From assembly GCA_039815375.1 (NCBI GenBank), contig JBCBZJ010000040.1, positions 1 to 18,990 of the forward strand: a stretch of 18,990 bases of DNA, written 5' to 3'. A program made the translations under genes and the position numbers. This stretch comes from Verrucomicrobiota bacterium. GTDB lineage: Bacteria > Verrucomicrobiota > Verrucomicrobiia > Opitutales > Coraliomargaritaceae. A model generated the notes under the pieces. It did not search any database, was not told where the DNA came from, and saw only the letters and a list, made by a program, of their open reading frames with translations. This document shows, in pieces, positions 1 to 18,990 of this stretch (positions are counted from its first letter, which is position 1; every line of letters begins with the position of its first letter).

Positions 1-141
1 ACCGGGCCCGGTAAGCCCAATCCAAGAGTGCGCATGGAAGCCAGACAGAAAGGATTCCAGTCTCGGCCAAGCTTCAGGTAGACAATATCAGCTACAAAAT
101 TGAAATTTTCACATTAAACTTGAGATGCCTTCACATGGAAG
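1..141 (+). mobile_element. Putative non-coding right end of an IS110/IS1111-type element inserted in an attC
   Basis: It replaces the expected xxxxAACC of the first attC (...CATGGAAG|TCGAGATAG versus the usual AACCAG|TCG). The terminal CATGGAAG (134-141) is repeated internally at 33-40 next to a stem. No transposase is in the window, so the family is inferred. Confidence 0.45.
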
Positions 142-197
142 TCGAGATAGCCAACACCTAGGCTGCGCCTAGGCGTCGGCTACTCTATACGTTCACG
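141..197 (+). repeat. attC site, R'' end missing
   Basis: GTCGAGATAGCCAACACCTAGGCTGCGCCTAGGCGTCGGCTACTCTATAC-GTTCACG; internal palindrome CCTAGG/CCTAGG and TAGCC/GGCTA; R' at 191-197. Confidence 0.8.
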
Positions 198-201
198 GGA
201 A

Positions 202-502
202 ATGATGAAACTATATCTAGTATGCTCAGTGGTCGCATTCAGCATCCCTGTCGTAAACTTCATCGTCCTCGGTATCATCCAAAATTTAATGGAGGGAAAT
301 GATGCATTCAGCTGGATAGCGTTCACTTTGAAGACGATTGTTGTCGCGGAGATTTCCTTGCTGTTCTGGATACCTGCCAGTTTGATTGCGCTTATTCTAG
401 CGGTTTCACTTCCAGAAAAAAGAAACAGAATGAAAAGAAGTTGCCTAGCCTTTCCGATTCTAGTGACACTCTTGATCTACACCTGTGGGACATACGTTGG
501 AC

Positions 503-507
<5 letters not shown>
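202..507 (+). CDS. Cassette 1: hypothetical membrane protein (~3 hydrophobic segments)
   Basis: ORF between attC sites; stop overlaps R''; hydrophobic stretches. Confidence 0.8.
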
Positions 508-606
<99 letters not shown>

Positions 607-613
607 AATAAGA

Positions 614-1078
614 ATGAGCATCGAAATCAAAGATATTGCAGAGCTTTCCTCCGCATTGCTCACCCCTGTAATCGGGGTTGTGACTACAATTATTTTAGTA
701 AATCAATATCGCTTAGAGAAAAGAAAATGGAAACTAGATCTCTTCGACAAGCGATACGCAGTTTATCGAGCAACACTGGAGTTTATTGCTGCAATGATGC
801 GACACGGGAAATGCACCCCCGAATCACAAGGACAATTTTTGCAGGGGACAAGAGACCGCGGTCTCTTCTTCGAAAAAGAAGTAGATGAAATCCTAGATGA
901 AGTCTGGCACCTTGGGGTAGACCTCGAAATGCATCAAGACATCTTCAAAGATCTACCCGTTGGAGAGGAAAGAAGTAAACACGTCAGAGCAGCAGGCGAG
1001 TTAAAGAAGTCTTTGCCAAGCCTAGGAAAGAAAGTTCAGGACAGATTTGCAGATTACATTCAACTCAAAGAAAAATGA
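614..1078 (+). CDS. Cassette 2: hypothetical protein with N-terminal TM helix and helical soluble domain
   Basis: 154 aa ORF filling the cassette; hydrophobic N-terminus followed by KLDLFDKRYAVY. Confidence 0.85.
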   Translation: MSIEIKDIAELSSALLTPVIGVVTTIILVNQYRLEKRKWKLDLFDKRYAVYRATLEFIAAMMRHGKCTPESQGQFLQGTRDRGLFFEKEVDEILDEVWHLGVDLEMHQDIFKDLPVGEERSKHVRAAGELKKSLPSLGKKVQDRFADYIQLKEK

Positions 1079-1149
1079 CCCTAACCAGGCGGTGGTCTCA
1101 ATTCCTTTCGCGCTCCGCGCTTCAGTCTTGAGACACCCCATCGTTCAGC
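1079..1149 (+). repeat. attC site (71 bp recurrent type)
   Basis: CCCTAAC...GTCTCAA..GCGCTCCGCGC..TTGAGAC...GTTCAGC. Confidence 0.92.
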
Positions 1150-1155
1150 AAAGTA

Positions 1156-1464
1156 ATGAATAAAGAAACCGGAGATCGAATTGATGCCTGCACCGACGTA
1201 GAGGAAATAGGAAAGATCCTCCACGGAAATAGACCCGACTCCGTAACATGGTCTCGGGCAAAAATGAGACTAGATGCGATTCGTTTTGCAGAAAACCAAA
1301 TCGAGCAGAGAAAAACAAATGCACTAACTAGATTCATGTTATGGCTTACTATTGGCATTTTCATTCTTACCGTGATTCTCGTTCTTACAGAGTTTAATAT
1401 AATCCCAACCAGCTCTAACGGCCATAATGAAGCAAAAGAAAGCACCAGCGAACAACACCCATAA
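1156..1464 (+). CDS. Cassette 3: hypothetical protein with one C-proximal TM helix
   Basis: 102 aa ORF between attC sites; FMLWLTIGIFILTVILVL. Confidence 0.8.
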   Translation: MNKETGDRIDACTDVEEIGKILHGNRPDSVTWSRAKMRLDAIRFAENQIEQRKTNALTRFMLWLTIGIFILTVILVLTEFNIIPTSSNGHNEAKESTSEQHP

Positions 1465-1479
1465 GGCTAGACTTGAAGG

Positions 1480-1545
1480 GCTGAACAAAGCGGAGATATC
1501 AACTGCATTCGCTGCGCTCATTTGCGATATTTCTCATCGTTGGGT
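1480..1545 (+). repeat. attC site (66 bp)
   Basis: GCTGAAC 1480-1486 ... GAGATATC/GATATTTCTC arms ... GTTGGGT 1539-1545. Confidence 0.9.
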
Positions 1546-1552
1546 AGAAAGA

Positions 1553-2206
<654 letters not shown>

Positions 2207-2215
2207 AAGAGAATT

Positions 2216-2674
2216 ATGAAACAAACGATACTGTTCACGCTCGCGACTCTGGTTGTGATTCTACAAATTGGCTGTGCCACAGCTACAACCGGCGCTCGCT
2301 CTGCTGACTTGCAGAGGTCTTACACTGTCGAAAAGGGAACGGTCGTAAGCGTTACTGAAGTGACCATCGACAATACGAAAGGAAATCACTCAGGAGCGAT
2401 AACTGGAGCAGGTTCTGGTGCTCTTTCTGGAGCTTTTATCGATGAAAGTATAGAAGGTGCAATTGCAGGCGCTATAGTCGGAGGCTTGATGGGAAGCACT
2501 ATTGAGAACCTAACTGGAAAGCAGAAAGGATATGAACTCGATATAAGAAAAACTGACGGAACCATAGTTAGAATTCTCCAGCGGAAGCAGACCTTAGAGG
2601 GGATAAGCGTTAATGAAGAGATTGAACTCATGACTGATTCCGACGGCACAACTATCGTCAAGCGTCTCAAGTGA
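2216..2674 (+). CDS. Cassette 5 ORF1: glycine-zipper outer-membrane lipoprotein (SlyB/Pcp-like)
   Basis: Lipobox IGC; GTVVSVTEVTI strand; GAITGAGSGALSGA...GAIAGAIVGGLMGS glycine zipper; GYELDIRKTDG. Confidence 0.8.
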   Translation: MKQTILFTLATLVVILQIGCATATTGARSADLQRSYTVEKGTVVSVTEVTIDNTKGNHSGAITGAGSGALSGAFIDESIEGAIAGAIVGGLMGSTIENLTGKQKGYELDIRKTDGTIVRILQRKQTLEGISVNEEIELMTDSDGTTIVKRLK

Positions 2675-2877
2675 ATGTAGAGAATGTTAGCCCTACGTTT
2701 ACGATCTTAGAAGTGAATCGTTTTGCTTTCGACTTAGGGAATCAGCCAGCATTCTTCTCGGTAGACGTTATCAGGGAGGGAAACAGAACCTTAGTTAGAC
2801 TTCGAGAAGGAAAGCCGAGCTATGGAAAAAACGAAAATATATCGGCTAAGGTTAAAACTTTGCTCTTACAAATGTGA
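2671..2877 (+). CDS. Cassette 5 ORF2: small hypothetical protein
   Basis: GTGA overlap with the upstream stop; ends at the attC R''; no recognisable motif. Confidence 0.45.
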   Translation: MNVENVSPTFTILEVNRFAFDLGNQPAFFSVDVIREGNRTLVRLREGKPSYGKNENISAKVKTLLLQM

Positions 2878-2982
2878 TCGAACCAGGCGAGGTAGTCAAT
2901 GCGAGTTCAGCCGCCGAATTATCCGAGAACCGCTTGCACGATTGACCCGTTAGGCTCGCATCGACTACTCTTCACGTTCGGT
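2877..2982 (+). repeat. attC site (long type, 106 bp)
   Basis: ATCGAAC 2877-2883; GTAGTCAATGCGAG / CTCGCATCGACTAC arms; GTTCGGT 2976-2982. Confidence 0.88.
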
Positions 2983-2988
2983 AAGAAA

Positions 2989-3332
2989 ATGAAAAATCTA
3001 CTGCTAGCCTTAATCCCATTTCTCCTCATCGGATGCGCTAGTGTTGAAATAGAAGAGAATAAAACTCTTCGATACCACGGACACTACAACGTCGGGTTCG
3101 AAGTGAATGAATTCAAGCCATGCGGAATAGACGAAATGTGGTGGATTGGAGCATGGCCAGAAGAAGAGAAAATAGAATTTGGAGCGAGTCCTGAATATCT
3201 AGAAGTTTTTGGAACCGTCACACCTCGAGGGAGATACGGACACCTCGGAGCGTATAAAAGAGAAATCCATATATACAAAATCATTGTTCGAGACATTCCT
3301 CGCAAGGATTGCAATCAACCTGAAAATAAATG

Positions 3333-3333
<1 letters not shown>
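2989..3333 (+). CDS. Cassette 6: hypothetical lipoprotein (start corrected from 2899 to 2989)
   Basis: MKNLLLALIPFLLIGC lipobox; GFEVNEFKPC and GRYGHLGAYKRE motifs. Confidence 0.85.
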
Positions 3334-3397
<64 letters not shown>

Positions 3398-3402
3398 GAA
3401 AA

Positions 3403-3621
3403 ATGATCGAGCTACCATATCTCGTGACAATCATTGTCGTAGCCGCGTTGCTATTGGCATTAATCCCTCTTCTCATCGCATCTGCTCCACTACTTCTTTC
3501 ATTCTTAGCAGCTCTTCTCTTTCGATGTGTAATTGAAATCCGAAATAAAAGAGAAAAAAAGAGAATGGAATCTATTCCTACCGAAAGAGGATCATACGAT
3601 ACGGAAAAGAAACCACTCTGA
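3403..3621 (+). CDS. Cassette 7: small membrane protein
   Basis: Long hydrophobic N-terminal half, basic C-terminal tail. Confidence 0.7.
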   Translation: MIELPYLVTIIVVAALLLALIPLLIASAPLLLSFLAALLFRCVIEIRNKREKKRMESIPTERGSYDTEKKPL

Positions 3622-3666
3622 TGAAACAGAATTCCTCCGACGTTCGAAACCAACAGACTCGACCGG

Positions 3667-3726
3667 GTAGAACCAGTCGGAGTAGCGAACGACTAAGCTT
3701 CGCTTAGTCGCAGCTATCCTCTACGT
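3667..3726 (+). repeat. attC site interrupted by IS1182 (R' GTTCTAC displaced to 5414-5420)
   Basis: GTAGAAC 3667-3673; CGACTAAGC-TTC-GCTTAGTCG hairpin; ends CTCTACGT at the IS junction. Confidence 0.9.
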
Positions 3727-5411
3727 GAGTCTGTGTCAAAAAGTAGCTCCAATGAAGTGTAATCTGTGTTGCTGCTCACTGTCTCGAAGCTATGCTTTAG
3801 TTCGCTTATATCGAACCTTAAAAATGAGTTACCTTGAAGGAGAGCACCGCGATCAAGAACTGTTATTACCGGAGCGTTTAGACGGCTATATCTCAGAAGA
3901 TAACCCGGTTCGTTTTATCGACGCGTTCGTAGACCAATTGGACTTGAGCGCTTGCGGCTTCGAGGCGCAGCGGACAGACACCCGCGGTCGTCCGGGGTAT
4001 GCGCCAGCAGACATGCTCAAGCTGTATCTGTATGGCTATAGCAATCGAACTCGTTCGAGTCGGCAACTCGAGCGTGCTTGTCACATCAACATGGAAGTGA
4101 TCTGGCTGATGCGGCGTCTGAAGCCCGATCACAAGACGATTGCGGAGTTTCGTCGCAAACACCCGAAGTCCTTCAAGAAGGTGTTCCGCCAGTTCGTCTT
4201 TCTGTGCCGTAGGCTCGGTCTGGTTGCTGGAGAGCTCGTTGCCATCGACGGCACACAACTCAAAGCGGTGAACAACCCGAGCAAGAATCTGACGCGCACC
4301 CGCTTGCAGCGTCAGATCAAAGATGCCGACCAGAAGATCGACGCCTATCTCGCACAACTCGACGACGAGGACGCACGCGAAAAAGGCGGACGCAAACTCA
4401 ACCGCTCGAAGCTGCGCGAGAAGATGGGGCGACTCAAGGCTGAGCTGGACTCGATGAAAGAACTCGATTCGGCCATGGAGCAAGCAGGTGTCAAACAAGT
4501 CTCCCAGACCGACCCAGAAAGCCGTTCGATGGCCAAGAACCCACGCATCGCGGTCGGCTACAACGCACAGGCTAGCGCGGACGAAAAGCACGGCATCATC
4601 GTCGCCGAAGACTTAAGCAACGACGTGCAGGACTACGATCAACTAGAGCCCATGGCACGTCAGTCCAAAGAGAATCTTGGCGATCCGAAGGACTTGGATG
4701 TGACCGCCGACAAAGGCTACGACAAAGCCAGTCAGATCAAAGCCGTTGAACAGATGGGTGCGCGTTGCCACGTGCCCAGTCGCCGCAATAGCGTTAAAGG
4801 CGGCAAGCACTACACCAAGGATGCCTTCGGTTATCTAAAAACCAAAGACGCCTACCGTTGCCCCGCAGGCAAGCTACTGCACCGCAGTTATGAATCACAA
4901 GTAAACGGCAAAACGATCTATACCTACAACAACTCAAAAGCCTGCCAAGGCTGTCGCCTCTTCGATCGCTGCACGACGAAAGAGCGCGGTCGTAACATTA
5001 TCCGAGGCGAAGACGAAGCGACCGTCGAAGTAGTCCGCAAGCGGATGGCAAAAGAGCCTGAGAAGTATAAACGCCGAGGAGCGACCATTGAAAAAGTCTT
5101 CGGCACAATCAAATGGGCGATGGGAGCTGAAAGTTTATTAATGAAAGGCGTCGAAAAATCACGCGGCGAATGGTCTCTACTATGCGCTTGTTACAACTTG
5201 AAGCGCCTTATCACTCTGGTCGGCGTCAAAGGCCTCCTAGAGGCCCTAGATGGCCTTGTTTTTGAGCGAAGAATCGCCTTATATCCGAAAATGCCAATCC
5301 AACTCGTTAATCATGCGAACCCTTTCGAAAATCTACGAAGTGTCGGAAATTTAGATACAAATCAACGCTACCAAATTGCCGCGTAATTAACGCTGTTTTT
5401 AACACAAACTC
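3727..5411 (+). mobile_element. IS1182-family insertion sequence, 1685 bp, 4-bp target duplication ACGT
   Basis: IRs GAGTCTGTGTCAAAAA (3727) and reverse-complement GAGTTTGTGTTAAAAA (ending 5411), 14/16 identical; ACGT at 3723-3726 and 5412-5415. Confidence 0.93.
3824..5386 (+). CDS. IS1182-family DDE transposase (probable start ATG 3824)
   Basis: GRPGYAPADMLKLYLYGY, PDHKTIAEFRR, AIDGTQLKA, GYNAQ, ADKGY, YRCPAG, R...IEKVFGTIK motifs. Confidence 0.93.
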   Translation: MSYLEGEHRDQELLLPERLDGYISEDNPVRFIDAFVDQLDLSACGFEAQRTDTRGRPGYAPADMLKLYLYGYSNRTRSSRQLERACHINMEVIWLMRRLKPDHKTIAEFRRKHPKSFKKVFRQFVFLCRRLGLVAGELVAIDGTQLKAVNNPSKNLTRTRLQRQIKDADQKIDAYLAQLDDEDAREKGGRKLNRSKLREKMGRLKAELDSMKELDSAMEQAGVKQVSQTDPESRSMAKNPRIAVGYNAQASADEKHGIIVAEDLSNDVQDYDQLEPMARQSKENLGDPKDLDVTADKGYDKASQIKAVEQMGARCHVPSRRNSVKGGKHYTKDAFGYLKTKDAYRCPAGKLLHRSYESQVNGKTIYTYNNSKACQGCRLFDRCTTKERGRNIIRGEDEATVEVVRKRMAKEPEKYKRRGATIEKVFGTIKWAMGAESLLMKGVEKSRGEWSLLCACYNLKRLITLVGVKGLLEALDGLVFERRIALYPKMPIQLVNHANPFENLRSVGNLDTNQRYQIAA

Positions 5412-5426
5412 ACGTTCTACAAAAAA

Positions 5427-6110
5427 ATGAATCGCATTGAGCCAAAGTATTATGCAACCAGCTTAAAAGTCCTAAGCATTGGAGAATTCTTGAGACTAAG
5501 CCCAGGTCCAATATCTGGCTTCGTATCATGGATTATAGGGCGATTTCTCCCGCCTCAGGGAAAAGAACTGATGCCTACTGACTACGACAAAATCGAATCT
5601 ACTTTGGAGGACATGAGCGAGATGTTGTCCGAAAAGTTGGTTTTTGCTTCATCTTGTTTTGAAGAGAACGAGTTTGCGCCTATCGGCTGGCAGAGGCTCC
5701 CGTCCGACCAACAAGAGATAATAGACTCTGGGAGTGTGATATGCCTGTCGTCATGCGGTCATTTTGTAGGTGTTTTTTCGACCGTAATAAGAGAAAGCGA
5801 AGACACTCCAGATGGTTATATTTATACTGAAGCTAGTAGCATATCCTGTTACTATCCCGATGAAACATATATTTGCGTAGCTGATACGAATATACAACTC
5901 GACCCGATTCCCTCTGAAACTAGCATATGCCTAAAAGGGGAATCCGTTTACTCGCTCAAAGAGAGAATAGAGAAAGAGTTATCGAAGCGACCCGAAGCAA
6001 TCAAACTCAGCAACTGGAATGAAGTCAGGAAAGTGATGGAACTTCACGACACGAAAGCATTCCTATACCGCAAGGATCAACGAAAGCTATTTGTAGAAAT
6101 AGACAAGTAG
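5427..6110 (+). CDS. Cassette 8: hypothetical protein
   Basis: 227 aa ORF from R' 5414 to a stop overlapping R'' 6107. Confidence 0.85.
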   Translation: MNRIEPKYYATSLKVLSIGEFLRLSPGPISGFVSWIIGRFLPPQGKELMPTDYDKIESTLEDMSEMLSEKLVFASSCFEENEFAPIGWQRLPSDQQEIIDSGSVICLSSCGHFVGVFSTVIRESEDTPDGYIYTEASSISCYYPDETYICVADTNIQLDPIPSETSICLKGESVYSLKERIEKELSKRPEAIKLSNWNEVRKVMELHDTKAFLYRKDQRKLFVEIDK

Positions 6111-6161
6111 AACCAGTCGTGAGAGGCAACGCCTTTGGCGCGCCTCCACTTGACGTTGTGT
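6107..6161 (+). repeat. attC site (55 bp, minimal)
   Basis: GTAGAAC ... GAGGCAACGCC-TTT-GGCGCGCCTC ... GTTGTGT. Confidence 0.9.
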
Positions 6162-6166
6162 AAGAA

Positions 6167-6658
6167 ATGACTACGCAGGAAAGAATAAACAAATTCCTCC
6201 TAGAACTCGGGGAATTCATCGAAAAATACTACTCGATGGGTGTTGATTCAGTATCAAATGAAACGCATGAAGACTGGATTAAAGTCTTCATCAATGGGCC
6301 TGCTGAATCTTCGATAGAACTTTGGTCGCAAGGGAAAGAAGTAACTGTAGCTTTCGGAGAGTCTCACTGGCATATAGGCGACTACAATGATCCTGTCGAT
6401 TTAGAGAATATATACGAACCAACAGTCGATAGCGTCATCGAGATCCTTAGTGGAAAGGTAGGAACATATTCCGCATGGAATGAAGAGAAAGCACTAGGTG
6501 GCGGAAGCTACGAAGGAGAAACTATCGAGGCTGCTATCTTGGCGTCGAAAGCACACTTCTCAAAAGCGACTCACCTAAAAGTCAAAACCTGGGCCAACGA
6601 AACGAAGACACAACCAGTCGGTAGTCTCAATTCAGTTACGCGCTCCGCGCTACACTGA
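6167..6658 (+). CDS. Cassette 9: acidic hypothetical protein; reads through most of its attC
   Basis: 163 aa ORF; stop at 6656-6658 inside attC 6608-6681. Confidence 0.82.
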   Translation: MTTQERINKFLLELGEFIEKYYSMGVDSVSNETHEDWIKVFINGPAESSIELWSQGKEVTVAFGESHWHIGDYNDPVDLENIYEPTVDSVIEILSGKVGTYSAWNEEKALGGGSYEGETIEAAILASKAHFSKATHLKVKTWANETKTQPVGSLNSVTRSALH

Positions 6659-6681
6659 ATCGAGACACCTCTACGTTCTGC
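6608..6681 (+). repeat. attC site (74 bp)
   Basis: ACACAAC ... GTCTCAATTCAGT / ACTGAATCGAGAC ... GTTCTGC. Confidence 0.92.
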
Positions 6682-6689
6682 TAAAAAAT

Positions 6690-6923
6690 ATGACTACACC
6701 TAAACAGTTTGCAGTCTTCATCCGGAAAGTCGCCAATGGAACTGCGACAAAAGAAGAATGGGACAGATGCGCTGTTAACCACTACGCCAATGAGAAAATG
6801 GAAGCATCTAGGTCAGAGCTTGTTCGGTTGAAGTTGGGATACACCACAGAAGAAGAAAAGAAGAGTGAACTGAATGAGCTTTTGAACTCTCTCGCTGACC
6901 GTCTTGAAAAACATGAAAACTAA
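6690..6923 (+). CDS. Cassette 10: small helical hypothetical protein
   Basis: 77 aa ORF filling the cassette. Confidence 0.78.
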   Translation: MTTPKQFAVFIRKVANGTATKEEWDRCAVNHYANEKMEASRSELVRLKLGYTTEEEKKSELNELLNSLADRLEKHEN

Positions 6924-6925
6924 AG

Positions 6926-6996
<71 letters not shown>

Positions 6997-7009
6997 GAAA
7001 AAATAATAC

Positions 7010-7558
7010 ATGCTTTTCTTAACACAGAAAGACATCGATGATCTAAGATCACGTGGGTTCGAAGAAGAGAATATCTATTCCACTCCCTCACCAGAGCGAA
7101 TTGAACAGGCAAAGCAGATAGCAGAGCACGTTACAAAAACCTTTCGAGGCATAAAACTCGGTTGCGGCATTGGGCTCCACGAGGGGCAAGCCATTGATGA
7201 CTACGAGTCCGACAAAGAGAGAAAAAGCAAAAGAAAGAAAGACGAGAAAGAGAATTGGTCAGCAATCAGGTCGGATACTCTGAACACTTGCAACAGCAGC
7301 TTGTCATTCTTTGACGCAGCTGGAATGCGCTTTCACTTACCAGCATTTATTTGCTCCGACCTTCGAGGTGAATATGACCAGAGTCTAGAGTTTTCACTCA
7401 CAGATCTAAGCGATTGGATGAAAGAAAAATTCATGCTCTTCACAAATAAAGAGAAAGAAGCAGTTGCCTTGTATCTTGAGTTCTTGGCGGATGACATTGA
7501 TTCAGAATTCTCGAGAGAATCGATATTTCAGGCACTTGAAGAATATTGGAAAAAATGA
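7010..7558 (+). CDS. Cassette 11: DUF6714-like protein
   Basis: LG.GIGLHEGQAIDDY, W..I, SLSFFDAAGMRFHLPAFI motifs recognised from memory of the family; not searched. Confidence 0.65.
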   Translation: MLFLTQKDIDDLRSRGFEEENIYSTPSPERIEQAKQIAEHVTKTFRGIKLGCGIGLHEGQAIDDYESDKERKSKRKKDEKENWSAIRSDTLNTCNSSLSFFDAAGMRFHLPAFICSDLRGEYDQSLEFSLTDLSDWMKEKFMLFTNKEKEAVALYLEFLADDIDSEFSRESIFQALEEYWKK

Positions 7559-7567
7559 AGAAACTGA

Positions 7568-7641
<74 letters not shown>

Positions 7642-7648
7642 AAAAAGA

Positions 7649-8002
7649 ATGAAACTAACAATCTACCTTGATGGTGATCCAACCAATACCTTGAGCAAGG
7701 AGATCTACTCACTTGATCTTACTGAAAAAGAAGAAGCTGATATCATTCTAAACAAAGAGAAAATAGAATTACCAGGCTATGAGAATCCATACCTCTTCAT
7801 CAGCAAACCATGTGGTCCAGGATATCACATTGCAATTTGGGATGGAGAGAAGCCCTTAGTCTCAACAGCCTCTTGGGTACACGAACATTATTCCAACACA
7901 AGAGTCCACATGACTCCAGACTACTACCTCAACATTCACATTGAAAAGAATGGGATCCAACCAGTCGAGACGCTCAATTCCGAGGCTGCGCCTCAGAATT
8001 AG
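7649..8002 (+). CDS. Cassette 12: hypothetical protein; stop inside attC
   Basis: 117 aa ORF. Confidence 0.78.
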   Translation: MKLTIYLDGDPTNTLSKEIYSLDLTEKEEADIILNKEKIELPGYENPYLFISKPCGPGYHIAIWDGEKPLVSTASWVHEHYSNTRVHMTPDYYLNIHIEKNGIQPVETLNSEAAPQN

Positions 8003-8019
8003 CGCTCCCTACGTTGTAT
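7955..8019 (+). repeat. attC site (65 bp)
   Basis: ATCCAAC ... CGCTCAATTCCGAGG / CCTCAGAATTAGCG ... GTTGTAT. Confidence 0.9.
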
Positions 8020-8293
8020 GAAGAAAACGATTCAGACCATTTACTTCATCATCCTGCTCTCTCTCATCGCAGGATGTGCTCTGAATGAAGAGGAACGGGA
8101 ATCCATTGGTTCTGTGGAAATGAAAGAAGATGGAACTCTTGCGTTTATGCTCAGAGCCGAATCGCAAGAAGGAGCTATCGGCCAGAGTTACTTCGAAGTG
8201 GAAAAAGAAGAAGAGAACTACGAGGAGTATTTATCTCATGTTGCACCGATAGAAGTCGGAGAATCGAAAGCAGTTAAACCATGGAAAAACTAA
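8018..8293 (+). CDS. Cassette 13: small hypothetical lipoprotein
   Basis: Lipobox IAGC; IGSVEMKEDGTL.F.LRAE...VKPW; ATG overlaps the R' box. Confidence 0.82.
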   Translation: MKKTIQTIYFIILLSLIAGCALNEEERESIGSVEMKEDGTLAFMLRAESQEGAIGQSYFEVEKEEENYEEYLSHVAPIEVGESKAVKPWKN

Positions 8294-8296
8294 AGG

Positions 8297-8357
8297 ATAC
8301 AACCAGTCGCAAGACTCAATGTCGCTAACGCGCCATCGAGTCAGCTCTACGTTATAT
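8297..8357 (+). repeat. attC site (61 bp)
   Basis: ATACAAC ... GACTCAATG / CATCGAGTC ... GTTATAT. Confidence 0.9.
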
Positions 8358-8706
8358 GAAGAAATTAGAAAAACAGCGCATACTTCTTTATGCTATCGTC
8401 TGTTTTGTGGCTTTGTTCTTCTTCATTTCGATCAGCGTAGACGAGGGAATTCAGAACTACGAAGAACGAACAAAAGAAGCAGGAATACAGAATAATCTAC
8501 GAACAATAGCTTCGAGTGCTGACCAACACTTTCTAACTACCGAATCAGAAAAAATTGAAGTGAATGAAATGATTACTCTTGGGTATTTCGATTCACTGGA
8601 AAATTTTGATGGTGAAGACTACTCCACCATTTTGGTAGAGAAAGGTTTCGAGAGAATTTCAGTCTCTACAAGAGATGGAACCATCTATACCTATGGAGCG
8701 AATTGA
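8356..8706 (+). CDS. Cassette 14: membrane-anchored pilin-like protein
   Basis: N-terminal TM helix then IQNNLRTIASSADQHFL...GEDY, resembling the pilin-like helix of Verrucomicrobia prepilin proteins; no GFTLIE cleavage motif. Confidence 0.6.
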   Translation: MKKLEKQRILLYAIVCFVALFFFISISVDEGIQNYEERTKEAGIQNNLRTIASSADQHFLTTESEKIEVNEMITLGYFDSLENFDGEDYSTILVEKGFERISVSTRDGTIYTYGAN

Positions 8707-8770
8707 TATAACCAGTCGACATACTCAATTCAGTGCCTACAGCACTTCTTGAGTAGTCTCCACGTTACAC
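8706..8770 (+). repeat. attC site (65 bp)
   Basis: ATATAAC ... TACTCAATTCAGTGC / GCACTTCTTGAGTA ... GTTACAC. Confidence 0.9.
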
Positions 8771-8773
8771 GGA

Positions 8774-9448
8774 ATGAAATACATCATCTTTCTCACCGCC
8801 CTAGCGCTACTAAGTGGTTGCAACACGACCCGCCCGTGGTTCTTCGGAAAAGATGCTGCGCAAATAAGACCAGAGCAGGGATACATTGTCGGAACCATCA
8901 CTCAAACAGACCCCGAAATCGCCAATGGACATACCACGATTAATATTCAAAAATCAGACTCACACAACTCTTTAAGCGACTTGGTTAATCGGTTTCAGAA
9001 AATTGAACTGAATTATTCTAGCTATCTAGACCGAAACGACACTGACTTCTCCAACAAGAAAGGGAGATGCTTTCTAAAAGAATTAGGTGAAGGAACATAT
9101 TATGTAACACAATGGAATGTTCAATCGAATGACATGAGTAGCTTCTGGCCTGTGGACGTAATAGCCTACCCTATTAAGATCAAAGCAGGAGAGATCTACT
9201 ACATCGGCAATTTCGACGTTACAGTGACACCCGGAGTTCCTGACTCTTTTGGTTTTCCTAGAATCACCCGTGCTTGGCTAGAAGTGAAAGATGAATACAA
9301 TAATGATATCGATGATATTCTCAGAGTTTTCCCCTTCATTAAAGGCCAGGAAATCGAGAATTATTCTATCAAGATGGATGAATGGATCAGATCCGATAGA
9401 GTTAGAACTGGAACGATCAAACCTGTGCCCTTCCCTGAAGAAAAATGA
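8774..9448 (+). CDS. Cassette 15: hypothetical lipoprotein
   Basis: MKYIIFLTALALLSGC lipobox; beta-rich body with GTYYVTQW and IKAGEIYYIGNF. Confidence 0.85.
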   Translation: MKYIIFLTALALLSGCNTTRPWFFGKDAAQIRPEQGYIVGTITQTDPEIANGHTTINIQKSDSHNSLSDLVNRFQKIELNYSSYLDRNDTDFSNKKGRCFLKELGEGTYYVTQWNVQSNDMSSFWPVDVIAYPIKIKAGEIYYIGNFDVTVTPGVPDSFGFPRITRAWLEVKDEYNNDIDDILRVFPFIKGQEIENYSIKMDEWIRSDRVRTGTIKPVPFPEEK

Positions 9449-9519
<71 letters not shown>

Positions 9520-9570
9520 AAACTGGTCCATTTCAAGAGTTAGTCTGTTGTGTTAAAATGACAACAGACC

Positions 9571-9840
9571 ATGAAAGGCAAAAGATATAAAACTGAACAA
9601 AAAATCCGGATTCTGCGCCTTGCAGATCAGGCAGATAAAACAATCTTGGATGTATGCCGTGAATCAGGCATCAGTGAGCAAACGTTCCATCGTTGGAAAC
9701 GTGAGTTCGGCATGATGGATATGGATCAGGCTAAGCAGCTCAAGGAGCTCCAAAAAGAGAATGCTCGATTGAAGCGTATGCTTGCCGATGAGATGCTGGG
9801 TAAAGAGCTGTTGAAGGAGGCTCTGGAAAAAAAGCTGTGA
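9571..9840 (+). CDS. IS3-family transposase OrfA (HTH plus leucine zipper)
   Basis: VCRESGISEQTFHRWKREF; LKELQKENARLKRMLAD; A7G slippery run at 9827-9834. Confidence 0.92.
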   Translation: MKGKRYKTEQKIRILRLADQADKTILDVCRESGISEQTFHRWKREFGMMDMDQAKQLKELQKENARLKRMLADEMLGKELLKEALEKKL

Positions 9841-10796
9841 GCCCCGGTCACAAGCGGCAGCTTGCTGTTGATTTTGTGGACCAGGGGCGTTGCACAGCAA
9901 GAGTGGCATGTCGGCATTTTGGCCTGCACCGCTCTACTTTTTCGTACAAGGCAAAGAAGACCAGCCTATGGCTGAGCGATCTCAAAGACCGTTTGACGAA
10001 GCTGTCGAGGTTGTTTCCTGAGCTGGGTTATGCAAAGATAGCTCGGTTGCTGAAGAATGAAGGCTGGGCTGTCGGTGCTCGATTGATCCAGCGTTTACGC
10101 AGAGAGCTTGGTTTAATGGTTCCTCCGAAACGTAAACGCCAGCGCCGCAAAGGCCCTTCAACGGGCTTACCAACGGCGGCGCAGCATCGCGGCCACGTCT
10201 GGACCTGGGACTTTGTTCATGACTCCACTGTGCGAGGTGGAAAACTTCGTATGCTTAATATCATCGATGAATACACTCGAGAGTGCTTGTGCATCCATGT
10301 AGATCGCAAGATCAATGCTCGTAAGGTGCGTGGCGTGCTTCAGCGACTTATCAAAGATCATGGAGCTCCCGGCTATATCCGTAGCGATAATGGCAGTGAG
10401 TTCATCGAAAAAGAGCTCCGCGCCTGGATCGCAGGTGCTGGTATCAAAACGATCTATATCGATCCCGGAAGCCCTTGGCAGAATGGATATATCGAATCAT
10501 TCAACGCGAGATTACGCGACGAATGCCTAGATCGCGAACTGCTATTTACCCTGACCGAGGCTCGCGTAGTCCTCGAGGACTGGCGCTGGAAATACAATCA
10601 CGTTCGTCCGCATCGAAGTCTTGGATACATGACGCCACTGAGCTTCGCAGAACAAGAATCAACACCTTCCAGTCCCTGCTGGGTCTCCGGTCAGGCTCCG
10701 CCTTTCCTCCAACCCAGCATTGACTTCTTAAACCACCTATACCAACCCATTAACCACAGCAGCAGACTAACGAACATTGTGGCCCAGTTTGGGTAA
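9837..10796 (+). CDS. IS3-family transposase OrfB (rve/DDE), -1 frame relative to OrfA
   Basis: WTWDF, IIDEYTRECL, IRSDNGSEF, PGSPWQNGYIESFNARLRDECL, YNHVRPHRSLGYMTP. Confidence 0.95.
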   Translation: MSPGHKRQLAVDFVDQGRCTARVACRHFGLHRSTFSYKAKKTSLWLSDLKDRLTKLSRLFPELGYAKIARLLKNEGWAVGARLIQRLRRELGLMVPPKRKRQRRKGPSTGLPTAAQHRGHVWTWDFVHDSTVRGGKLRMLNIIDEYTRECLCIHVDRKINARKVRGVLQRLIKDHGAPGYIRSDNGSEFIEKELRAWIAGAGIKTIYIDPGSPWQNGYIESFNARLRDECLDRELLFTLTEARVVLEDWRWKYNHVRPHRSLGYMTPLSFAEQESTPSSPCWVSGQAPPFLQPSIDFLNHLYQPINHSSRLTNIVAQFG

Positions 10797-12745: not shown

Positions 12746-13459
12746 TTGTCGTTCGTGGCAAGAGAGGATACGGCAGGCATTTTTAAAGCATTGGCGGGCA
12801 AGACAGGAATGTGTCCGGCTACCGCGTTACTTGATCCGGTGAAGGTCGCTGAACAGCCTATCGGGGCTGATTATGGCGGTGCATCACTGCTTAGTACTGA
12901 AGGTAAGAGCCCCGCATGGGAACTACCCCAAAGGCAAATGATCGAATGCGTCTGCACTGGCCCTTCTGTAGGCGGTCAGAGTTTTTTGGAGTGCCTGATT
13001 AATGCATCCTGGCCATCTGGTGTTTTTACTGCCCTTGTCGATGCCGGTCATGGATTTGACCCGGGCAGTCTAAAAACCGGACCTGATAATCACTTTTTTT
13101 GGGTTCAGGTTCGCAGCTGTAAGCAGCTAACCAAGGCTTTAGATATCATCCTGCGGGACGATAATTTCGCATTTGTAGCCGCTGATCTGCGCGGTCTTTC
13201 CAATGCCCAGCTCCAAACAATCCAGCCTTTTGTCTGGTATCGTTTGCAGCGTTTGGCCCATCAAAGAGCAGGCGGCTGCGTGGTCTTTACAAGGAAGCCC
13301 AGTGTGCGTTGCGCGGATCGGCGTATTGCCCTGTCAAGGGCCCGCTGTCTGGATGATCTCGATCAAAGTCGGGAAACCCTGCTCACCGATATCCAGAATT
13401 CGGTTCACTATATGAACCGTGGACAGGTGACCATCCCCGAAGCTGCAATAGCAGGCTAG
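12746..13459 (+). CDS. imuA: ImuA-like RecA-fold mutasome protein (start uncertain)
   Basis: Degenerate Walker A (GPSVGGQS), ALVDAGHGFDPGSL, DIILRDDNF, WYRLQRLA; first gene of the operon with imuB-dnaE2. Confidence 0.8.
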   Translation: MSFVAREDTAGIFKALAGKTGMCPATALLDPVKVAEQPIGADYGGASLLSTEGKSPAWELPQRQMIECVCTGPSVGGQSFLECLINASWPSGVFTALVDAGHGFDPGSLKTGPDNHFFWVQVRSCKQLTKALDIILRDDNFAFVAADLRGLSNAQLQTIQPFVWYRLQRLAHQRAGGCVVFTRKPSVRCADRRIALSRARCLDDLDQSRETLLTDIQNSVHYMNRGQVTIPEAAIAG

Positions 13460-13486
13460 CACCCCTCTTTATGAAACGCTGCCCGC

Positions 13487-14974
13487 ATGTATCTGCGCAT
13501 CCACATCGAAAATTTCGCTCTCGCGGCGGCGCTACGTTTCCAGCCGGGCAAGCAACGCGGACCGGTAGCCCTGGTAGATCATCAGGGCCGGGTTTTTGAA
13601 TGTAACAGCGCAGCACAGGGGAAAGATATTCTGCCGGGGATGAGCATGGCCAAGGCGCTCTCGCGCTGCGGCAGTCTGCAGATTATCAATCAGGATATGC
13701 AGGCCGAGCGGGTAGCAAAACGCCTGCTTTGGAATGTAGCCTGGCAAATCACCCCTCAGATTGAGCTGGGTCAGGGACAAGATATGGGCTGCGCAACGTT
13801 GGAGCTGGTACGTCCCGATTTTCAGAAGCTCACCCTACAGATTGATCGGCTTTTGAGCACTCTGCGCCGCTATGACCTAACTGCACGCGCGGGGCTCGCA
13901 GAGACCCCAGAATGGGCTGTGTTTGCAGCAATTGCCGCTGAACGCAGCTGCTTTAAAATAATCCCCAATAAAGAACGGGCGCAGGAATTGATGGCCTGTT
14001 TGCCATTGCCGGTCCTGGAAGCTTTAAGTGCGGAGCATTGCGCCATACTTGAAGGCTGGGGCATTCATACTTTGGCTGCTCTTGCAAAGTTACCGCGGCA
14101 GGCGCTGGGTGAACGGATTGGACAGGCCGGGCTTCAAGCCTGGGACATCTTAAACGGTCAAGAAAAGCGCAGACTGCACTTTTCAGAGATCGAGCCTGAT
14201 TATAGCCAGCGCTTTGATCTGGAAGATCCTATCGTCGATCTGGAGGGGATTTGTTTTTTGATCCAGCGTGCTTCGGAAAGTCTGGAGCTCCAACTTGAAC
14301 AAGCGGGCAAGATGGCACGCTCAGTTTTTCTCTATCTGAAACTGGAGAACGGGAGGACGGAGCAAAAAACCATCCGTCTCCCCGAAGCCACCAGCCGCGC
14401 TGATTTACTGGAGCGCTTACTGCGCAATTATCTGGAACAGCTTAGATTGAAGGCACCGGTTTGTGTCTTGCAGCTGGGAGTGGAGCCGGTTGATCCGCTG
14501 TCCCGGCAGGCCGGGTTATTTGAACGCAGTGTGCGCAATCCCTGGCGCTTACAGGAAACGCTTGATCAATTGGCCGGGCTGTTAGGTCCGGATGCTTTCG
14601 GCTGCCCACGCCCATCTGATACCCATCATCCTGACAGATTTAGATTGGAAGCCCTTTCAACGGACGAACCGGATACGCATTCGAATAGCTCTACCTATCC
14701 AGAAGGTCCACCAGAGATGGGGCCACCGATGCGCCGCTTTTATCCTCCGCTTGCTGCTAAAGTCCTGATACGGAAAGGGCGTCCTGTTCATATTGCCACC
14801 GATATAGTCCAAGGCGATGTAGAACGTTGTAATGGGCCCTACTGCCTTAGCGGAGATTGGGCTGATAAGGAGATATGGGCTTTGGCGGAGTGGGATGTGG
14901 AGATTACCCAAGCCGGTGTTTATTGCCTGCGCTGGCAAAAAGAGCGTTGGCAACTGATCGGAGCATACGACTAG
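13487..14974 (+). CDS. imuB: ImuB, catalytically inactive Y-family polymerase
   Basis: CNSAAQGKDILPGMSMAKALSRC, WGIHTLAALAKLPRQALGERIG, GPYCLSGDW, WQLIGAYD; acidic catalytic motifs degenerate. Confidence 0.9.
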   Translation: MYLRIHIENFALAAALRFQPGKQRGPVALVDHQGRVFECNSAAQGKDILPGMSMAKALSRCGSLQIINQDMQAERVAKRLLWNVAWQITPQIELGQGQDMGCATLELVRPDFQKLTLQIDRLLSTLRRYDLTARAGLAETPEWAVFAAIAAERSCFKIIPNKERAQELMACLPLPVLEALSAEHCAILEGWGIHTLAALAKLPRQALGERIGQAGLQAWDILNGQEKRRLHFSEIEPDYSQRFDLEDPIVDLEGICFLIQRASESLELQLEQAGKMARSVFLYLKLENGRTEQKTIRLPEATSRADLLERLLRNYLEQLRLKAPVCVLQLGVEPVDPLSRQAGLFERSVRNPWRLQETLDQLAGLLGPDAFGCPRPSDTHHPDRFRLEALSTDEPDTHSNSSTYPEGPPEMGPPMRRFYPPLAAKVLIRKGRPVHIATDIVQGDVERCNGPYCLSGDWADKEIWALAEWDVEITQAGVYCLRWQKERWQLIGAYD

Positions 14975-14976
14975 CG

Positions 14977-17900
14977 ATGGAAGGCTATGCTGAACTCCAT
15001 GCCCGCAGTGCTTATAATTTTCTGCGGGGAGCTTTGCCGCCTAAAGCCATGATCCGCGAGATGCGGGAAGCCGGAATTAGCCATGCGGCCATGCCTGACC
15101 GGAACGGCTTTTACGGCGCGCCTGATTTTCAGTTTGGTGCCGAGGAGCTGGGATTTGAGGCAATTGTCAGCACTGAGCTGACCTTAGCGCGCGATCTATC
15201 TCACGATTGGCTAGAGGGCGATTATCTCGGCCATCTACCGCTCCTTGTTGAAAACCGCACCGGCTATAGCAATCTCTGCCAACTGCTCACACGCATGCAT
15301 CTGCGCTGGCGCAAATCCTCCGGTCCACGACCCGGTCAAAGCGGTGCGTATCCGGCTGCTGAACTTTCAGAACTGGCCGCTCACAGTGAGGGGCTTTTTG
15401 CTTTAACCGGAGATAGCGAAGGGCCTTTAGCAATTGCTTGGCATGCCGGGGGAGCGAAAGCGATGGAGAAAGCCATTGATGCACTCTGCGCAGTCTTTCC
15501 TAAAGATAGGCTCTACCTTGAAATCCAGCGTCATTTGCTGCGCACTGAGCGCCATTATAACCGTGCTCTTGTAGAGTTGGCTGAAAAGAAGGGGCTTTCT
15601 CTGATTGCGACAAATGCTCCGACCTATGCCACCAATACAGGTCGCAACGTTTTGGATATATTTACCTGCCTGCGCTATCATACGACGCTGGATCGGGCCG
15701 GACGCTTGCTTGAGGCCAATACTGAAAGGCGCATCAAAAGTGCGGCCGAGATGCGCATGCTTTTTGCCGATTTGCCTCAAGCCGTCGAGAACACGGTCCG
15801 GCTGGCACAGCGTCTGCCCTTTCGTTTACGCGATTTAGGTTACCGCTTCCCCAGCTTTCCGGTGCCCCCGGGTGAGAGCATGGATAGCTTCCTTCGTAAA
15901 CTCACCTTGTTTGGAGCACAGAACCGCTATGGTACGATCAGCCCTAAAGTGCGTCGCCAATTAGAACATGAGCTGGCGATTATTGAGAAGCTAGGCTTTG
16001 CCGGTTACTTCCTGATTGTTTGGGATATCACTAATTACTGCGCGGAACGCGATATCCTCTGTCAGGGTCGCGGCAGTGCAGCCAATAGTGCGGTTTGTTA
16101 TAGCCTGGGTATTACAGCAATTGATCCGATTGCCGGAGGCCTTCTCTTTGAGCGGTTTTTAAGCGAAGGGCGGCAAGGCTGGCCGGATATTGATATTGAT
16201 TTGCCCAGCGGAGAAAAGCGCGAGCAGGTTATTCAGGAAGTTTATCAGCGCTACGGAAAAAACAGCGCTGCGATGACGGCGAATGTTAACCATTACCGTG
16301 GCCGCTCCTCCATGCGTGAAATCGGTAAGGTGCTGGGGCTACCCTTGGATATTGTTGATCGATTTAATGCGCTCTTTGCCCGTGGTGATTTTCCGCATAC
16401 GCTGACTCTTGACGACCAAATCAAGCAGGCAGGAATCGATTGGAGTAATCCGCGTCACCGGGCCGCCTTAACCAGCTTTAATGCAATCACCGGTTTGCCC
16501 CGTAACTTAGGTCAGCATAGCGGCGGCATGGTCATTTGTAATGATGCGCTGCATCATTTTGTGCCATTAGAAAATGCTTCCATGGAAGGCCGTGTAGTGC
16601 TTCAGTGGAATAAGGATGCCTGTGAGGATTTGGGCATGGTTAAAATTGATCTGCTGGGGCTTGGGATGATGGCGGTGATGCAGGACTGTATCGAGCTGAC
16701 CCATCATCGCGGGCGTGGAGTTGATCTGGCCCGCATCGATAAAACAGATACAGAGACTTATGATCTGTTGTGCCGTGCTGAAACCATCGGGGTCTTTCAA
16801 GTCGAAAGCCGTGCGCAGATGGCAACATTGCCGCGCATGAGGCCGCGTAGCTTTTATGATTTGGCGATTGAAGTGGCAATCATTCGCCCTGGTCCGATCG
16901 CCGGCGAACTTGCTAATCCTTACCTCAATCGGCGCAACGGTATTGAAGAGGTGACCTATATTGATGAAAGGCTGCGACCGATCCTAGAACGCACGCTGGG
17001 TATTCCGATGTTTCAGGAGCAGGTGCTTAAAATGGGCATCGTAATGGCCGGGCTGGATGCCAGTGAATCCGAGCAACTGCGCCGGGCTCTTGGTTTTACC
17101 CGTGATGAAGAGCGGGTGAATAAAGCCAAGGATACGCTACGCAAACGTTTGGCGGATAATGGTATCTCCGGAGATAAGGCCGAATGGCTGGTCAATACGA
17201 TTGATAGTTTTGCGCTCTATGGTTTTCCCGAAAGCCATGCGATCAGCTTTGCCCTGATTGCTTACAGCTCGGCCTGGATGAAAGTGCACCGCACTGAGGA
17301 GTTCTTTTGTGCCTTGCTCAATAACCAGCCGATGGGCTTTTACGGCCCGGCTACGCTGATTCAGGATGCCAGACGCTATGGGCTGCGTTTCCTGCCGCCC
17401 GATGTGACGGCTTCAGAGTGGGACTGCACAATAGAGGATTACGAGGAACGTCCCTGTGTGCGGATTGGTCTGAAGATGATTAAGGCGCTTTCTGCAACCA
17501 ACACGCAAATGATGCTGGAGGAACGATCCCGGGAGCCTTTTATGTCTTTGCGGCAATTCCGTTTGCGAACGTGTTTTAAAAAGGATGAGATGCGTGTTCT
17601 GGCCGCAGCAGGTTCACTGAATGCCCTTGTTCAAAGTCGTCGTCAGGCGCTCTGGGAAATTGAGCAACCTATGGAGCTGGATTTGTTTTCGGCGGTTGAG
17701 TTGGAAGCGCAGGCTGATGAGGATGAAATACCTTCCAAGACCCCTCTGCCGGAAATGACCAATTGGGAGCGGCTTTGTGCGGATTTTGCCACCACAACAA
17801 TCACCGTTGGCGCACATCCGATGCAGCAAATTAGGCCTCAACTAAAGAGAAGCTATCAGACCGCTGAAGACCTTAAATCCCTAAAGGACGGAAAAATGGT

Positions 17901-18171
17901 GGATGTGGCTGGAGCGGTTATTTGCCGTCAGCGCCCCGGCACGGCAAAGGGTGTGTTCTTTCTCTCTCTGGAGGACGAGACCGGGATCGTAAATTGCGTC
18001 TTATGGCCTAATCTTTTTGAGCGAAACCGATTGTTGGTTGCTCAGGAACTATATATTGCAGCACGAGGGAAGCTGCAAAAATCACAGGGCACTATCCACG
18101 TCATTGCACGGCAGGTGGAGCGGCTCGAAATTGATGGTGCCCCGGCTTCAGCCAGCCATGATTTTCATTAG
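14977..18171 (+). CDS. dnaE2: Error-prone DNA polymerase III alpha DnaE2 (ImuC); start corrected to ATG 14977
   Basis: YAELHARSAYNFLRGA PHP start, GRGSAANSAVCY, PDIDID, KIDLLGLG, YGFPESHA, RQRPGTAKG, C-terminal SHDFH tail. Confidence 0.96.
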   Translation: MEGYAELHARSAYNFLRGALPPKAMIREMREAGISHAAMPDRNGFYGAPDFQFGAEELGFEAIVSTELTLARDLSHDWLEGDYLGHLPLLVENRTGYSNLCQLLTRMHLRWRKSSGPRPGQSGAYPAAELSELAAHSEGLFALTGDSEGPLAIAWHAGGAKAMEKAIDALCAVFPKDRLYLEIQRHLLRTERHYNRALVELAEKKGLSLIATNAPTYATNTGRNVLDIFTCLRYHTTLDRAGRLLEANTERRIKSAAEMRMLFADLPQAVENTVRLAQRLPFRLRDLGYRFPSFPVPPGESMDSFLRKLTLFGAQNRYGTISPKVRRQLEHELAIIEKLGFAGYFLIVWDITNYCAERDILCQGRGSAANSAVCYSLGITAIDPIAGGLLFERFLSEGRQGWPDIDIDLPSGEKREQVIQEVYQRYGKNSAAMTANVNHYRGRSSMREIGKVLGLPLDIVDRFNALFARGDFPHTLTLDDQIKQAGIDWSNPRHRAALTSFNAITGLPRNLGQHSGGMVICNDALHHFVPLENASMEGRVVLQWNKDACEDLGMVKIDLLGLGMMAVMQDCIELTHHRGRGVDLARIDKTDTETYDLLCRAETIGVFQVESRAQMATLPRMRPRSFYDLAIEVAIIRPGPIAGELANPYLNRRNGIEEVTYIDERLRPILERTLGIPMFQEQVLKMGIVMAGLDASESEQLRRALGFTRDEERVNKAKDTLRKRLADNGISGDKAEWLVNTIDSFALYGFPESHAISFALIAYSSAWMKVHRTEEFFCALLNNQPMGFYGPATLIQDARRYGLRFLPPDVTASEWDCTIEDYEERPCVRIGLKMIKALSATNTQMMLEERSREPFMSLRQFRLRTCFKKDEMRVLAAAGSLNALVQSRRQALWEIEQPMELDLFSAVELEAQADEDEIPSKTPLPEMTNWERLCADFATTTITVGAHPMQQIRPQLKRSYQTAEDLKSLKDGKMVDVAGAVICRQRPGTAKGVFFLSLEDETGIVNCVLWPNLFERNRLLVAQELYIAARGKLQKSQGTIHVIARQVERLEIDGAPASASHDFH

Positions 18172-18858: not shown

Positions 18859-18990
18859 TCAACTGGCCATTTTCTCCAAGGGACTGATCACGCTTCTGGC
18901 ATCCGACTGAGATGTGAGGTGAAGATACCTTCTGGTCGTTTCCAGACAAGTATGTCCCAGCAGTTCCTGAACCGAACGCACGTTCGCTCC
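18859..18990 (-). CDS. C-terminal end of a tyrosine recombinase, integron-integrase-like (partial, runs off the window)
   Basis: Manual translation GANVRSVQELLGHTCLETTRRYLHLTSQSDARSVISPLEKMAS*: box II LLGH...TT..Y plus V.SPL(D/E) tail. Confidence 0.85.
   Translation of the reverse strand, partial: GANVRSVQELLGHTCLETTRRYLHLTSQSDARSVISPLEKMAS

Follow-up and report, generated by a model that had tools for sequence, protein, structure and literature searches.

Several insertion sequences of the IS1111 group are known to target the attC sites of integrons. The IS1111-attC group comprises ISPa21, ISPst6, ISKpn4, and ISPa25 (Tetu and Holmes 2008, Post and Hall 2009, via PMC3001079, PMC11187229), and PMC3001079 describes it as monophyletic and inserted antisense to the cassettes. 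For ISKpn4, ISPst6, and ISPa25, attC targeting with seekRNAs has already been published (PMC11187229), and the same source defines the guide order of IS1111 RNAs. For IS621, double-stranded excision has been reported (PMC13626964), as has single-stranded copy-out. In ISPpu10, a stem-loop in the target gates insertion (10.64898/2026.03.19.712850).

Here, we describe an element of this kind in a stretch of 18,990 nt (the window), which is the whole of contig C30. Its first 141 nt are the right end of an element of the IS1111 group (IS110 family) sitting in an attC, in agreement with the original prediction made from the letters alone. We assign a probability of about 0.9 to the reading as a whole, that is, an IS1111-group element in the attC spacer, whose right-end RNA guides the recombinase to an AG core. 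The letters on which the prediction relied are all in place: CATGGAAG at 33-40 and 134-141, GCCAGAC at 40-46 opposite GTCTCGGC at 60-67, CAAGCT at 68-73, and TTGAGA at 120-125. What it overlooked is a subterminal inverted repeat at 125-136, and also that position 1 is the contig end, so that the upstream DNA is not directly readable.

The first attC indeed lacks the AAC found in 15/15 of the other attC-like sites in window positions 1-9600, 14 of which read AACC-AG. Its R'' box is absent, while the right half, L''/L'/R', is intact (L box 7/7), and the bottom-strand hairpin of this half has a z-score of -5.2. The remainder of the interrupted site occupies 142-197 on the plus strand (spacer 142-143, L'' 144-151, L' 179-185, R' 191-197) and is followed at 202-507 by a plus-strand ORF of 101 aa with no Pfam match, the next cassette and the first of a same-strand array. 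The insertion point is the AG core, three bases past the R'' box, and the element sits near the 5' end of attC, as in ISKpn4, ISPst6, and ISPa25, with attC targeting of the seekRNA type (PMC11187229).

The AG core (140-141, plus strand) is common to both junctions: AG starts 101 of the 102 left ends of related elements and comes right after 87 of the 90 right ends. Upstream of it are a 3-bp right terminal extension, GGA (137-139), present in 79+3 of 90 right ends, and the 12-bp right subterminal inverted repeat (125-136), which is perfectly complementary to the left-end repeat at C11:422946. The 12-mer occurs four times in the genome, at three right ends and one left end, and both end repeats carry one shared change relative to the family consensus repeat. 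Among the relatives, the subterminal repeats are perfect over 8-13 bp in 78/80 cases. The left extension at C11 is 7 bp, giving the 7-bp left and 3-bp right extensions of the IS1111 group. These extensions, the repeat, and the downstream non-coding region resemble ISEc11, ISPa11, and ISKpn4, which have 11-13 bp repeats and 7+3 extensions (Siddiquee et al. 2024, PMC11187229).

Positions 1-141 of the window are identical to C5:1-141 and ∼95% identical to the end of C58. Past the same AG, each of the three right ends continues into an attC half that differs from the others, and all three pass a strict attC-half test. Contigs of the assembly overlap by 141 nt, and therefore window 1-141 is a collapsed repeat. 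In run X1, we recovered one 478-nt contig with the depth of 46.3, compared with 13.8, 13.7, and 9.4 for its neighbors, which extends beyond the C58 end. It differs from the C58 end by six substitutions and one gap, all giving the letters of the window, and by none in the upstream 120 nt; therefore, window-type copies share the target loop of C58. This link of the window to the upstream part of the RNA rests on X1, a single run that may itself be the source of the assembly; runs X2 and X3, from the same study, yielded little. The copy number in the genome would then be three to four.

The left end was found at the 3' end of C11, where a cassette gene is followed by AACC-AG, TAGGA, the 12-bp repeat, and the start (126 codons) of a gene for a DEDD transposase. 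The predicted left junction, AACC-AG followed by CTTG, thus stands in its first half, whereas the second half reads TAGGA, and none of the 102 left ends carries CTTG. The expected transposase is also there, as the C11 fragment scores above the PF01548 cut-off (E = 1e-13); it is tied to the window end by the shared 12-bp repeat rather than by contiguous DNA. The C-terminal transposase domain, PF02371, is absent from this assembly; it is present in a relative that is 66% identical over the N-terminal 126 aa. Hence one could see in the window copy a dead or internally deleted remnant retaining the right end with the RNA tail and mobile at most in trans, all the more so as deleted copies are common among the relatives. 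Three of them, in two relatives (L153, L154, L149), lack the transposase end and the right target guide, the interior of the transposase being fused to the RNA gene, apparently via a short sequence that both share; in L157, the left end is joined to the right end. We nevertheless find a remnant rather unlikely, as the C11 frame stays open up to the contig end, and the collapsed multi-copy repeat evident from the 141-nt overlaps and the depth in X1 accounts for the gap.

The predicted bridge/seek RNA gene reaches into the window with its 3' part (1-54, plus strand), comprising the second half of the donor loop and the closing arms, as seen from the alignment of relatives and the pair counts. 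The target loop and the right donor guide belong to its 5' 120 nt, which lie beyond the contig edge, upstream of the window. There, as had been foreseen, we found a target loop that carries an AACCAG guide together with one for the right flank. The guides are arranged as right target, left target, right donor, left donor, with the top-strand guide 5' of the bottom-strand guide, as the IS1111 group requires and as in ISEc11, ISPa11, and ISKpn4 (PMC11187229). Within the window, 1-31 form the inner stem of the donor loop (positions 1-3 pair with 26 and 28-29, while the partners of 30-31 are located just upstream of position 1) and a small hairpin, 4-7/15-18; helix 5 is 97.5% paired, and helix 6, with changes on both sides, 63.9%. 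The left donor guide at 33-40 is a copy of the right end of the element plus the AG core, and the closing arms at 44-54 (44-47 and 50-54) pair with the 5' leader of the RNA both in the MFE fold and in the alignment, where helix 1 is 93.5% paired with 13 two-sided changes at one pair. The fold of the C58 copy of the RNA has a z-score of -2.55.

The assignment of 33-40 as a donor guide, made in the original prediction, is borne out by 88 of 91 rows in which the guide matches the right end of its own element, including variant ends (seven AGA-AG, one GGG-AG, and one GGA-GG); three rows disagree. The repeat of CATGGAAG is weak evidence by itself, as this 8-mer is frequent, with 5 copies in the window (0.81 expected) and 169 in the genome; it acquires its meaning because of the covariation in relatives. 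The frequency of the 8-mer is also what could be said for regarding 1-140 as the end of an ordinary cassette, or as an attI/intI region, with a chance repeat, the outcome named in advance as fatal to the prediction. However, homologous DNA is found immediately after IS110 transposase genes, the repeat at the end of the region pairs with that of a left end, and the C58 extension contains no long reading frame. We give this explanation practically no credence.

The reading of the window as a donor loop is correct insofar as it contains the left donor guide, but the partner guide lies ∼10 bases upstream of position 1, because the guides run in the IS1111 order. CAAGCT at 68-73 had been proposed as this partner, and it is not: the left end reads TAGGA, with CTTG in 0/102, and the C58 copy differs at these positions. 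The proposed stem 40-46/60-67 fares no better, with 39.9% of pairs formed against 39.1% in shuffled controls in an alignment of relatives that is poor in this region. The stem does appear in the fold of window 1-80, yet shuffled sequences fold equally well (z = +0.43). Positions 60-73 are not conserved and fall outside the functional model. In an alignment-free test of the stem, pairing downstream of the donor guide had a mean z of -0.04, with 8/57 clusters below -1.5, mostly those of the closest relatives, and a 5/6 match to the left end downstream of the guide occurs in 8/77 rows only. A short-duplex test on the 5' leader was likewise weak (mean z = -0.61, 10/57 clusters), and the leader helix therefore rests on the pair counts of the six-helix model.

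In that model, scored on 32 sequences (31 relatives, from 57 cluster sequences, and the window), 90.2% of the pairs are formed and 15/28 pairs show two-sided changes; none of the 500 shuffles did as well, and slid controls gave 29-43%. The choice of helices 22-25/131-134 and 16-19/195-198 was drawn from the same alignment and so leans towards it; the RNAalifold pairing of columns 17-20 with 131-134 was set aside in their favor. The donor guides are placed in a multi-loop, as in the IS1111 orthologues of PMC11208160. The Rfam search yielded no matches.

The covariation of the guides with their sites is seen for all four guides. The set comprised 91 right ends (90 and C58, with one element entering twice; for C58, the left flank of C11 was used), with one representative per 85% cluster, which reduces but does not remove relatedness. 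The left target guide matched its own site at 5.09 of 7 positions compared to 2.37 in permutations (46 clusters), with the identity of 0.91-0.98 at the four core-adjacent positions; the right target guide, at 4.77 of 9 compared to 2.68 (53 clusters); the right donor guide, at 3.74 of 5 compared to 2.14 (50 clusters); and the left donor guide, at 2.98 of 3 compared to 2.79 (57 clusters). For each guide, 0/5000 permutations reached the observed value. Among attC targeters alone (18 clusters), the left and right target guides still track their own sites (5/5000 and 0/5000). The presence of target and donor guides and a 2-nt core is shared with the IS621 bridge RNA and the predicted IS1111 bridge RNAs (Durrant et al. 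2024, PMC11208160); unlike in IS621, the RNA is in the right end, the guide order is reversed relative to the IS110 type, the subterminal repeat is long, and the core is AG. Compared to the seekRNAs of ISEc11, ISPa11, and ISKpn4, as described in PMC11187229, the predicted RNA here has donor guides that are also readable and covary.

The -35-like hexamer at 120-125 (5/6, plus strand) is a family feature, as a hexamer matching at 5-6 of 6 positions occurs 15-23 nt before the end of the repeat in 58/76 distinct right ends, and it is a candidate half of a circle-junction promoter. The -10 contributed by the left end would match at 3/6 positions only, the closest relatives have no -35, and a promoter scan of window 1-260 gave no complete promoter. 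Because of this weak -10 and the relatives without a -35, transcription of the cassette array, to which the element is in sense, might instead express the element. Just upstream of the -35 box, at 96-109, is a palindrome with 5-nt arms around TGAA and compensating changes in close relatives; the loop is TGAA in the close clade and CCACGT in others. It may be an operator or a terminator-like signal.

The right target half (141-149, plus strand) is an exact complement of the right target guide (9/9). The occupied right halves match the guide at 9, 8, and 6 of 9 positions, the last being the C58 insertion, while 31 free AG-core sites match at 4.9 positions on average and 8 of 9 at best (occupied vs. 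free, P = 0.005; the attC census, with 34 sites, is incomplete). Against the 15-nt target that the guides define, every free genomic site has at least two mismatches; there are 12 sites with two and 89 with three, and most of these are not attC. In the relatives, the strict attC-half test is passed by 16/27 distinct AAC-flanked insertions and 0/33 others. Guide pairing alone does not account for the strict use of attC: since all observed insertions are in attC though non-attC sites fit the guides, either the guides drifted after insertion, or the attC hairpin adds specificity. One can go further and suppose that a protein reading the folded attC hairpin is the main determinant, with RNA guides merely tuning the choice. 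Insertion of 3/3 copies in attC despite many non-attC sites equal to the weakest guide match, and the stem-loop gating of ISPpu10 (10.64898/2026.03.19.712850), point in that direction; the base-by-base covariation of guides and sites, observed also in non-attC targeters (0/33 pass the attC test), points away from it. Dominance of structure is thus not supported, and we consider it improbable, although a second layer of specificity besides the guides is likely. The element resembles ISPpu10 in that a repeated stem-loop target is recognized by guide pairing, and differs in that the structural gate was tested there and is inferred here. An attC at about 4550 on C2 (G000), nearly identical to that of the window, is uninterrupted and has AACC-AA in place of the AG core; it is unoccupied, as expected of an immune site. 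Matching left to right junctions by R''/R' complementarity was tried and abandoned because R' is part of the next cassette.

Full elements were found in 10/101 genomes of the family, 13/401 of the order, and 13/401 of the phylum (overlapping sets), and 80 of 572 metagenome loci were retained. A separate scan of genome contigs with the 126-aa transposase fragment yielded just four distant loci, which were left aside. The 116 hit rows include 102 with a left end and 90 with a right end having >100 nt of non-coding DNA; the non-coding region downstream of the transposase gene has the median length of 284 nt over these 90 right ends. A full-length relative exceeds the cut-offs for PF01548, PF02371, and NF033542, and the annotations of the best named homologues place them in Coraliomargarita and Puniceicoccaceae. 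By the features that can be scored in sequence, the element belongs to the IS1111 group. Of the 8000 protein clusters scored, at least 1538 belong to its clade at E 1e-80. In a quick tree of 75 transposases, unrooted, with no outgroup and without the ISPa21/ISPst6 proteins, a single 30-row branch (SH-aLRT 99) unites 25 of the 26 attC-labelled rows with five non-attC rows. Several individual loci deserve mention. One complete genome carries two full copies in consecutive attC sites 2.2 kb apart (L023/L034), L044 has a tandem repeat of the right end, and a metagenome sister subclade (L088, L092, L093, L099, and kin) has a recurring non-attC target, TTCT(C/A)(C/G)GA-AG-TTCG.

The right target guide varies faster than third codon positions in a small sample of six copies from three genomes, two of them identical and the set not independent, with the transposase genes differing at 30-49 of 1074 nt. 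Variable columns make up 7/10 of this guide, 67/357 of third codon positions, and 6/240 of the other right-end columns (guide vs. third codon positions, Fisher P = 0.0008, or 0.017 without one copy whose change may be a slip). Four alleles of the guide, differing at 3-7 of 10 positions, occur in copies that are 95-97% identical in the transposase gene, and the copies match their own flanks at 9, 9, 8, 6, 4, and 3 of 9 positions. One allele is present in three copies with three different flanks, which argues against rewriting of the guide at each insertion, and one copy sits in a site fitting the allele of its sister, suggesting that guides are used in trans. The four alleles among near-identical copies, 3/6 of which match their own flank at 8-9 of 9 positions, could be seen as support for an independently arisen attC-targeting IS1111 lineage in which the right target guide is occasionally rewritten blockwise from host attC (target-templated reprogramming). 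We regard this combined scenario as improbable too; diversifying selection on point changes would be simpler. Target-templated reprogramming, if true, would let the element follow a changing attC repertoire.

An element of the IS1182 family (NF033551, over cut-off) at 3728-5411 has landed at the R' box of another attC (3667). It is bordered by ACGT on either side, has imperfect terminal repeats, and is a second attC-associated insertion sequence, at the opposite end of the site. An IS3-family element (9522-10796) lies immediately past the last attC of the array. The array adjoins a mutagenesis cassette (12746-18171) with imuA-like, imuB (IMS), and dnaE2-type polymerase genes, and a C-terminal fragment of a tyrosine recombinase (18868-18990, minus strand) recurs on C4 and at the beginning of C17. 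The integron-integrase cut-off is passed by three genes, all of them on other contigs, and the assembly connects none of these to the array.

The element is most likely an insertion sequence of ∼1.4 kb with a short left end, a DEDD recombinase gene, and a long right end, placed in the R''-L'' spacer of attC and oriented like the cassettes. Its right end would encode and express an RNA of ∼170 nt with four guides: right target, left target, right donor, and left donor. In the recombinase-RNA complex, the donor guides would pair with the joined termini of the element, and the target guides, with ∼5 bases to the left and 8 bases to the right of the AG core in attC. A circle, excised or copied out, would form, and the recombinase would catalyze recombination of its joined ends with attC at AG, leaving AG at both junctions. 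Such an insertion cuts R'' off L''/L'/R' and so should disable the site and freeze the upstream cassette; disabling of the site has likewise been proposed for ISPa21 (PMC11616780).

The transposase, the upstream cassette, and the downstream cassettes are all on one strand, so the insertion is in sense, unlike in the IS1111-attC group, and again unlike in that group, the nearest kin of this transposase target other sequences. Plasmid transposases are at most 34.4% identical among the 25 matches listed, and all 5000 counted are below 60%. Five of six peptides characteristic of the clade are absent from the ISfinder sequence file of PMC11187229, where a control peptide was found; the sixth occurs there once, in an unrelated protein. 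The transposase lineage is, by sequence comparison, distant and nested among non-attC targeters, and because of the sense orientation, the low identity to plasmid transposases, and the absent marker peptides, it likely acquired attC targeting independently of the ISPa21/ISPst6 group. A literature search, with subscription journals, bioRxiv supplements, and part of the PMC11187229 supplement outside its coverage, returned no description of this lineage or of fast guide change. The mechanism is known; what appears to be new is the separate lineage, the sense orientation, and the fast change of the guide.

This large environmental clade of RNA-guided recombinases, with four readable guides and naturally reprogrammed to many targets, offers orthologues usable for bridge editing. 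Elements that are nearly identical but differ in their guides form a natural series in which guide evolution is directly testable. The element suggests that attC sites became a safe target on at least two occasions, in opposite orientations, and such insertions would lock cassettes within integron arrays.
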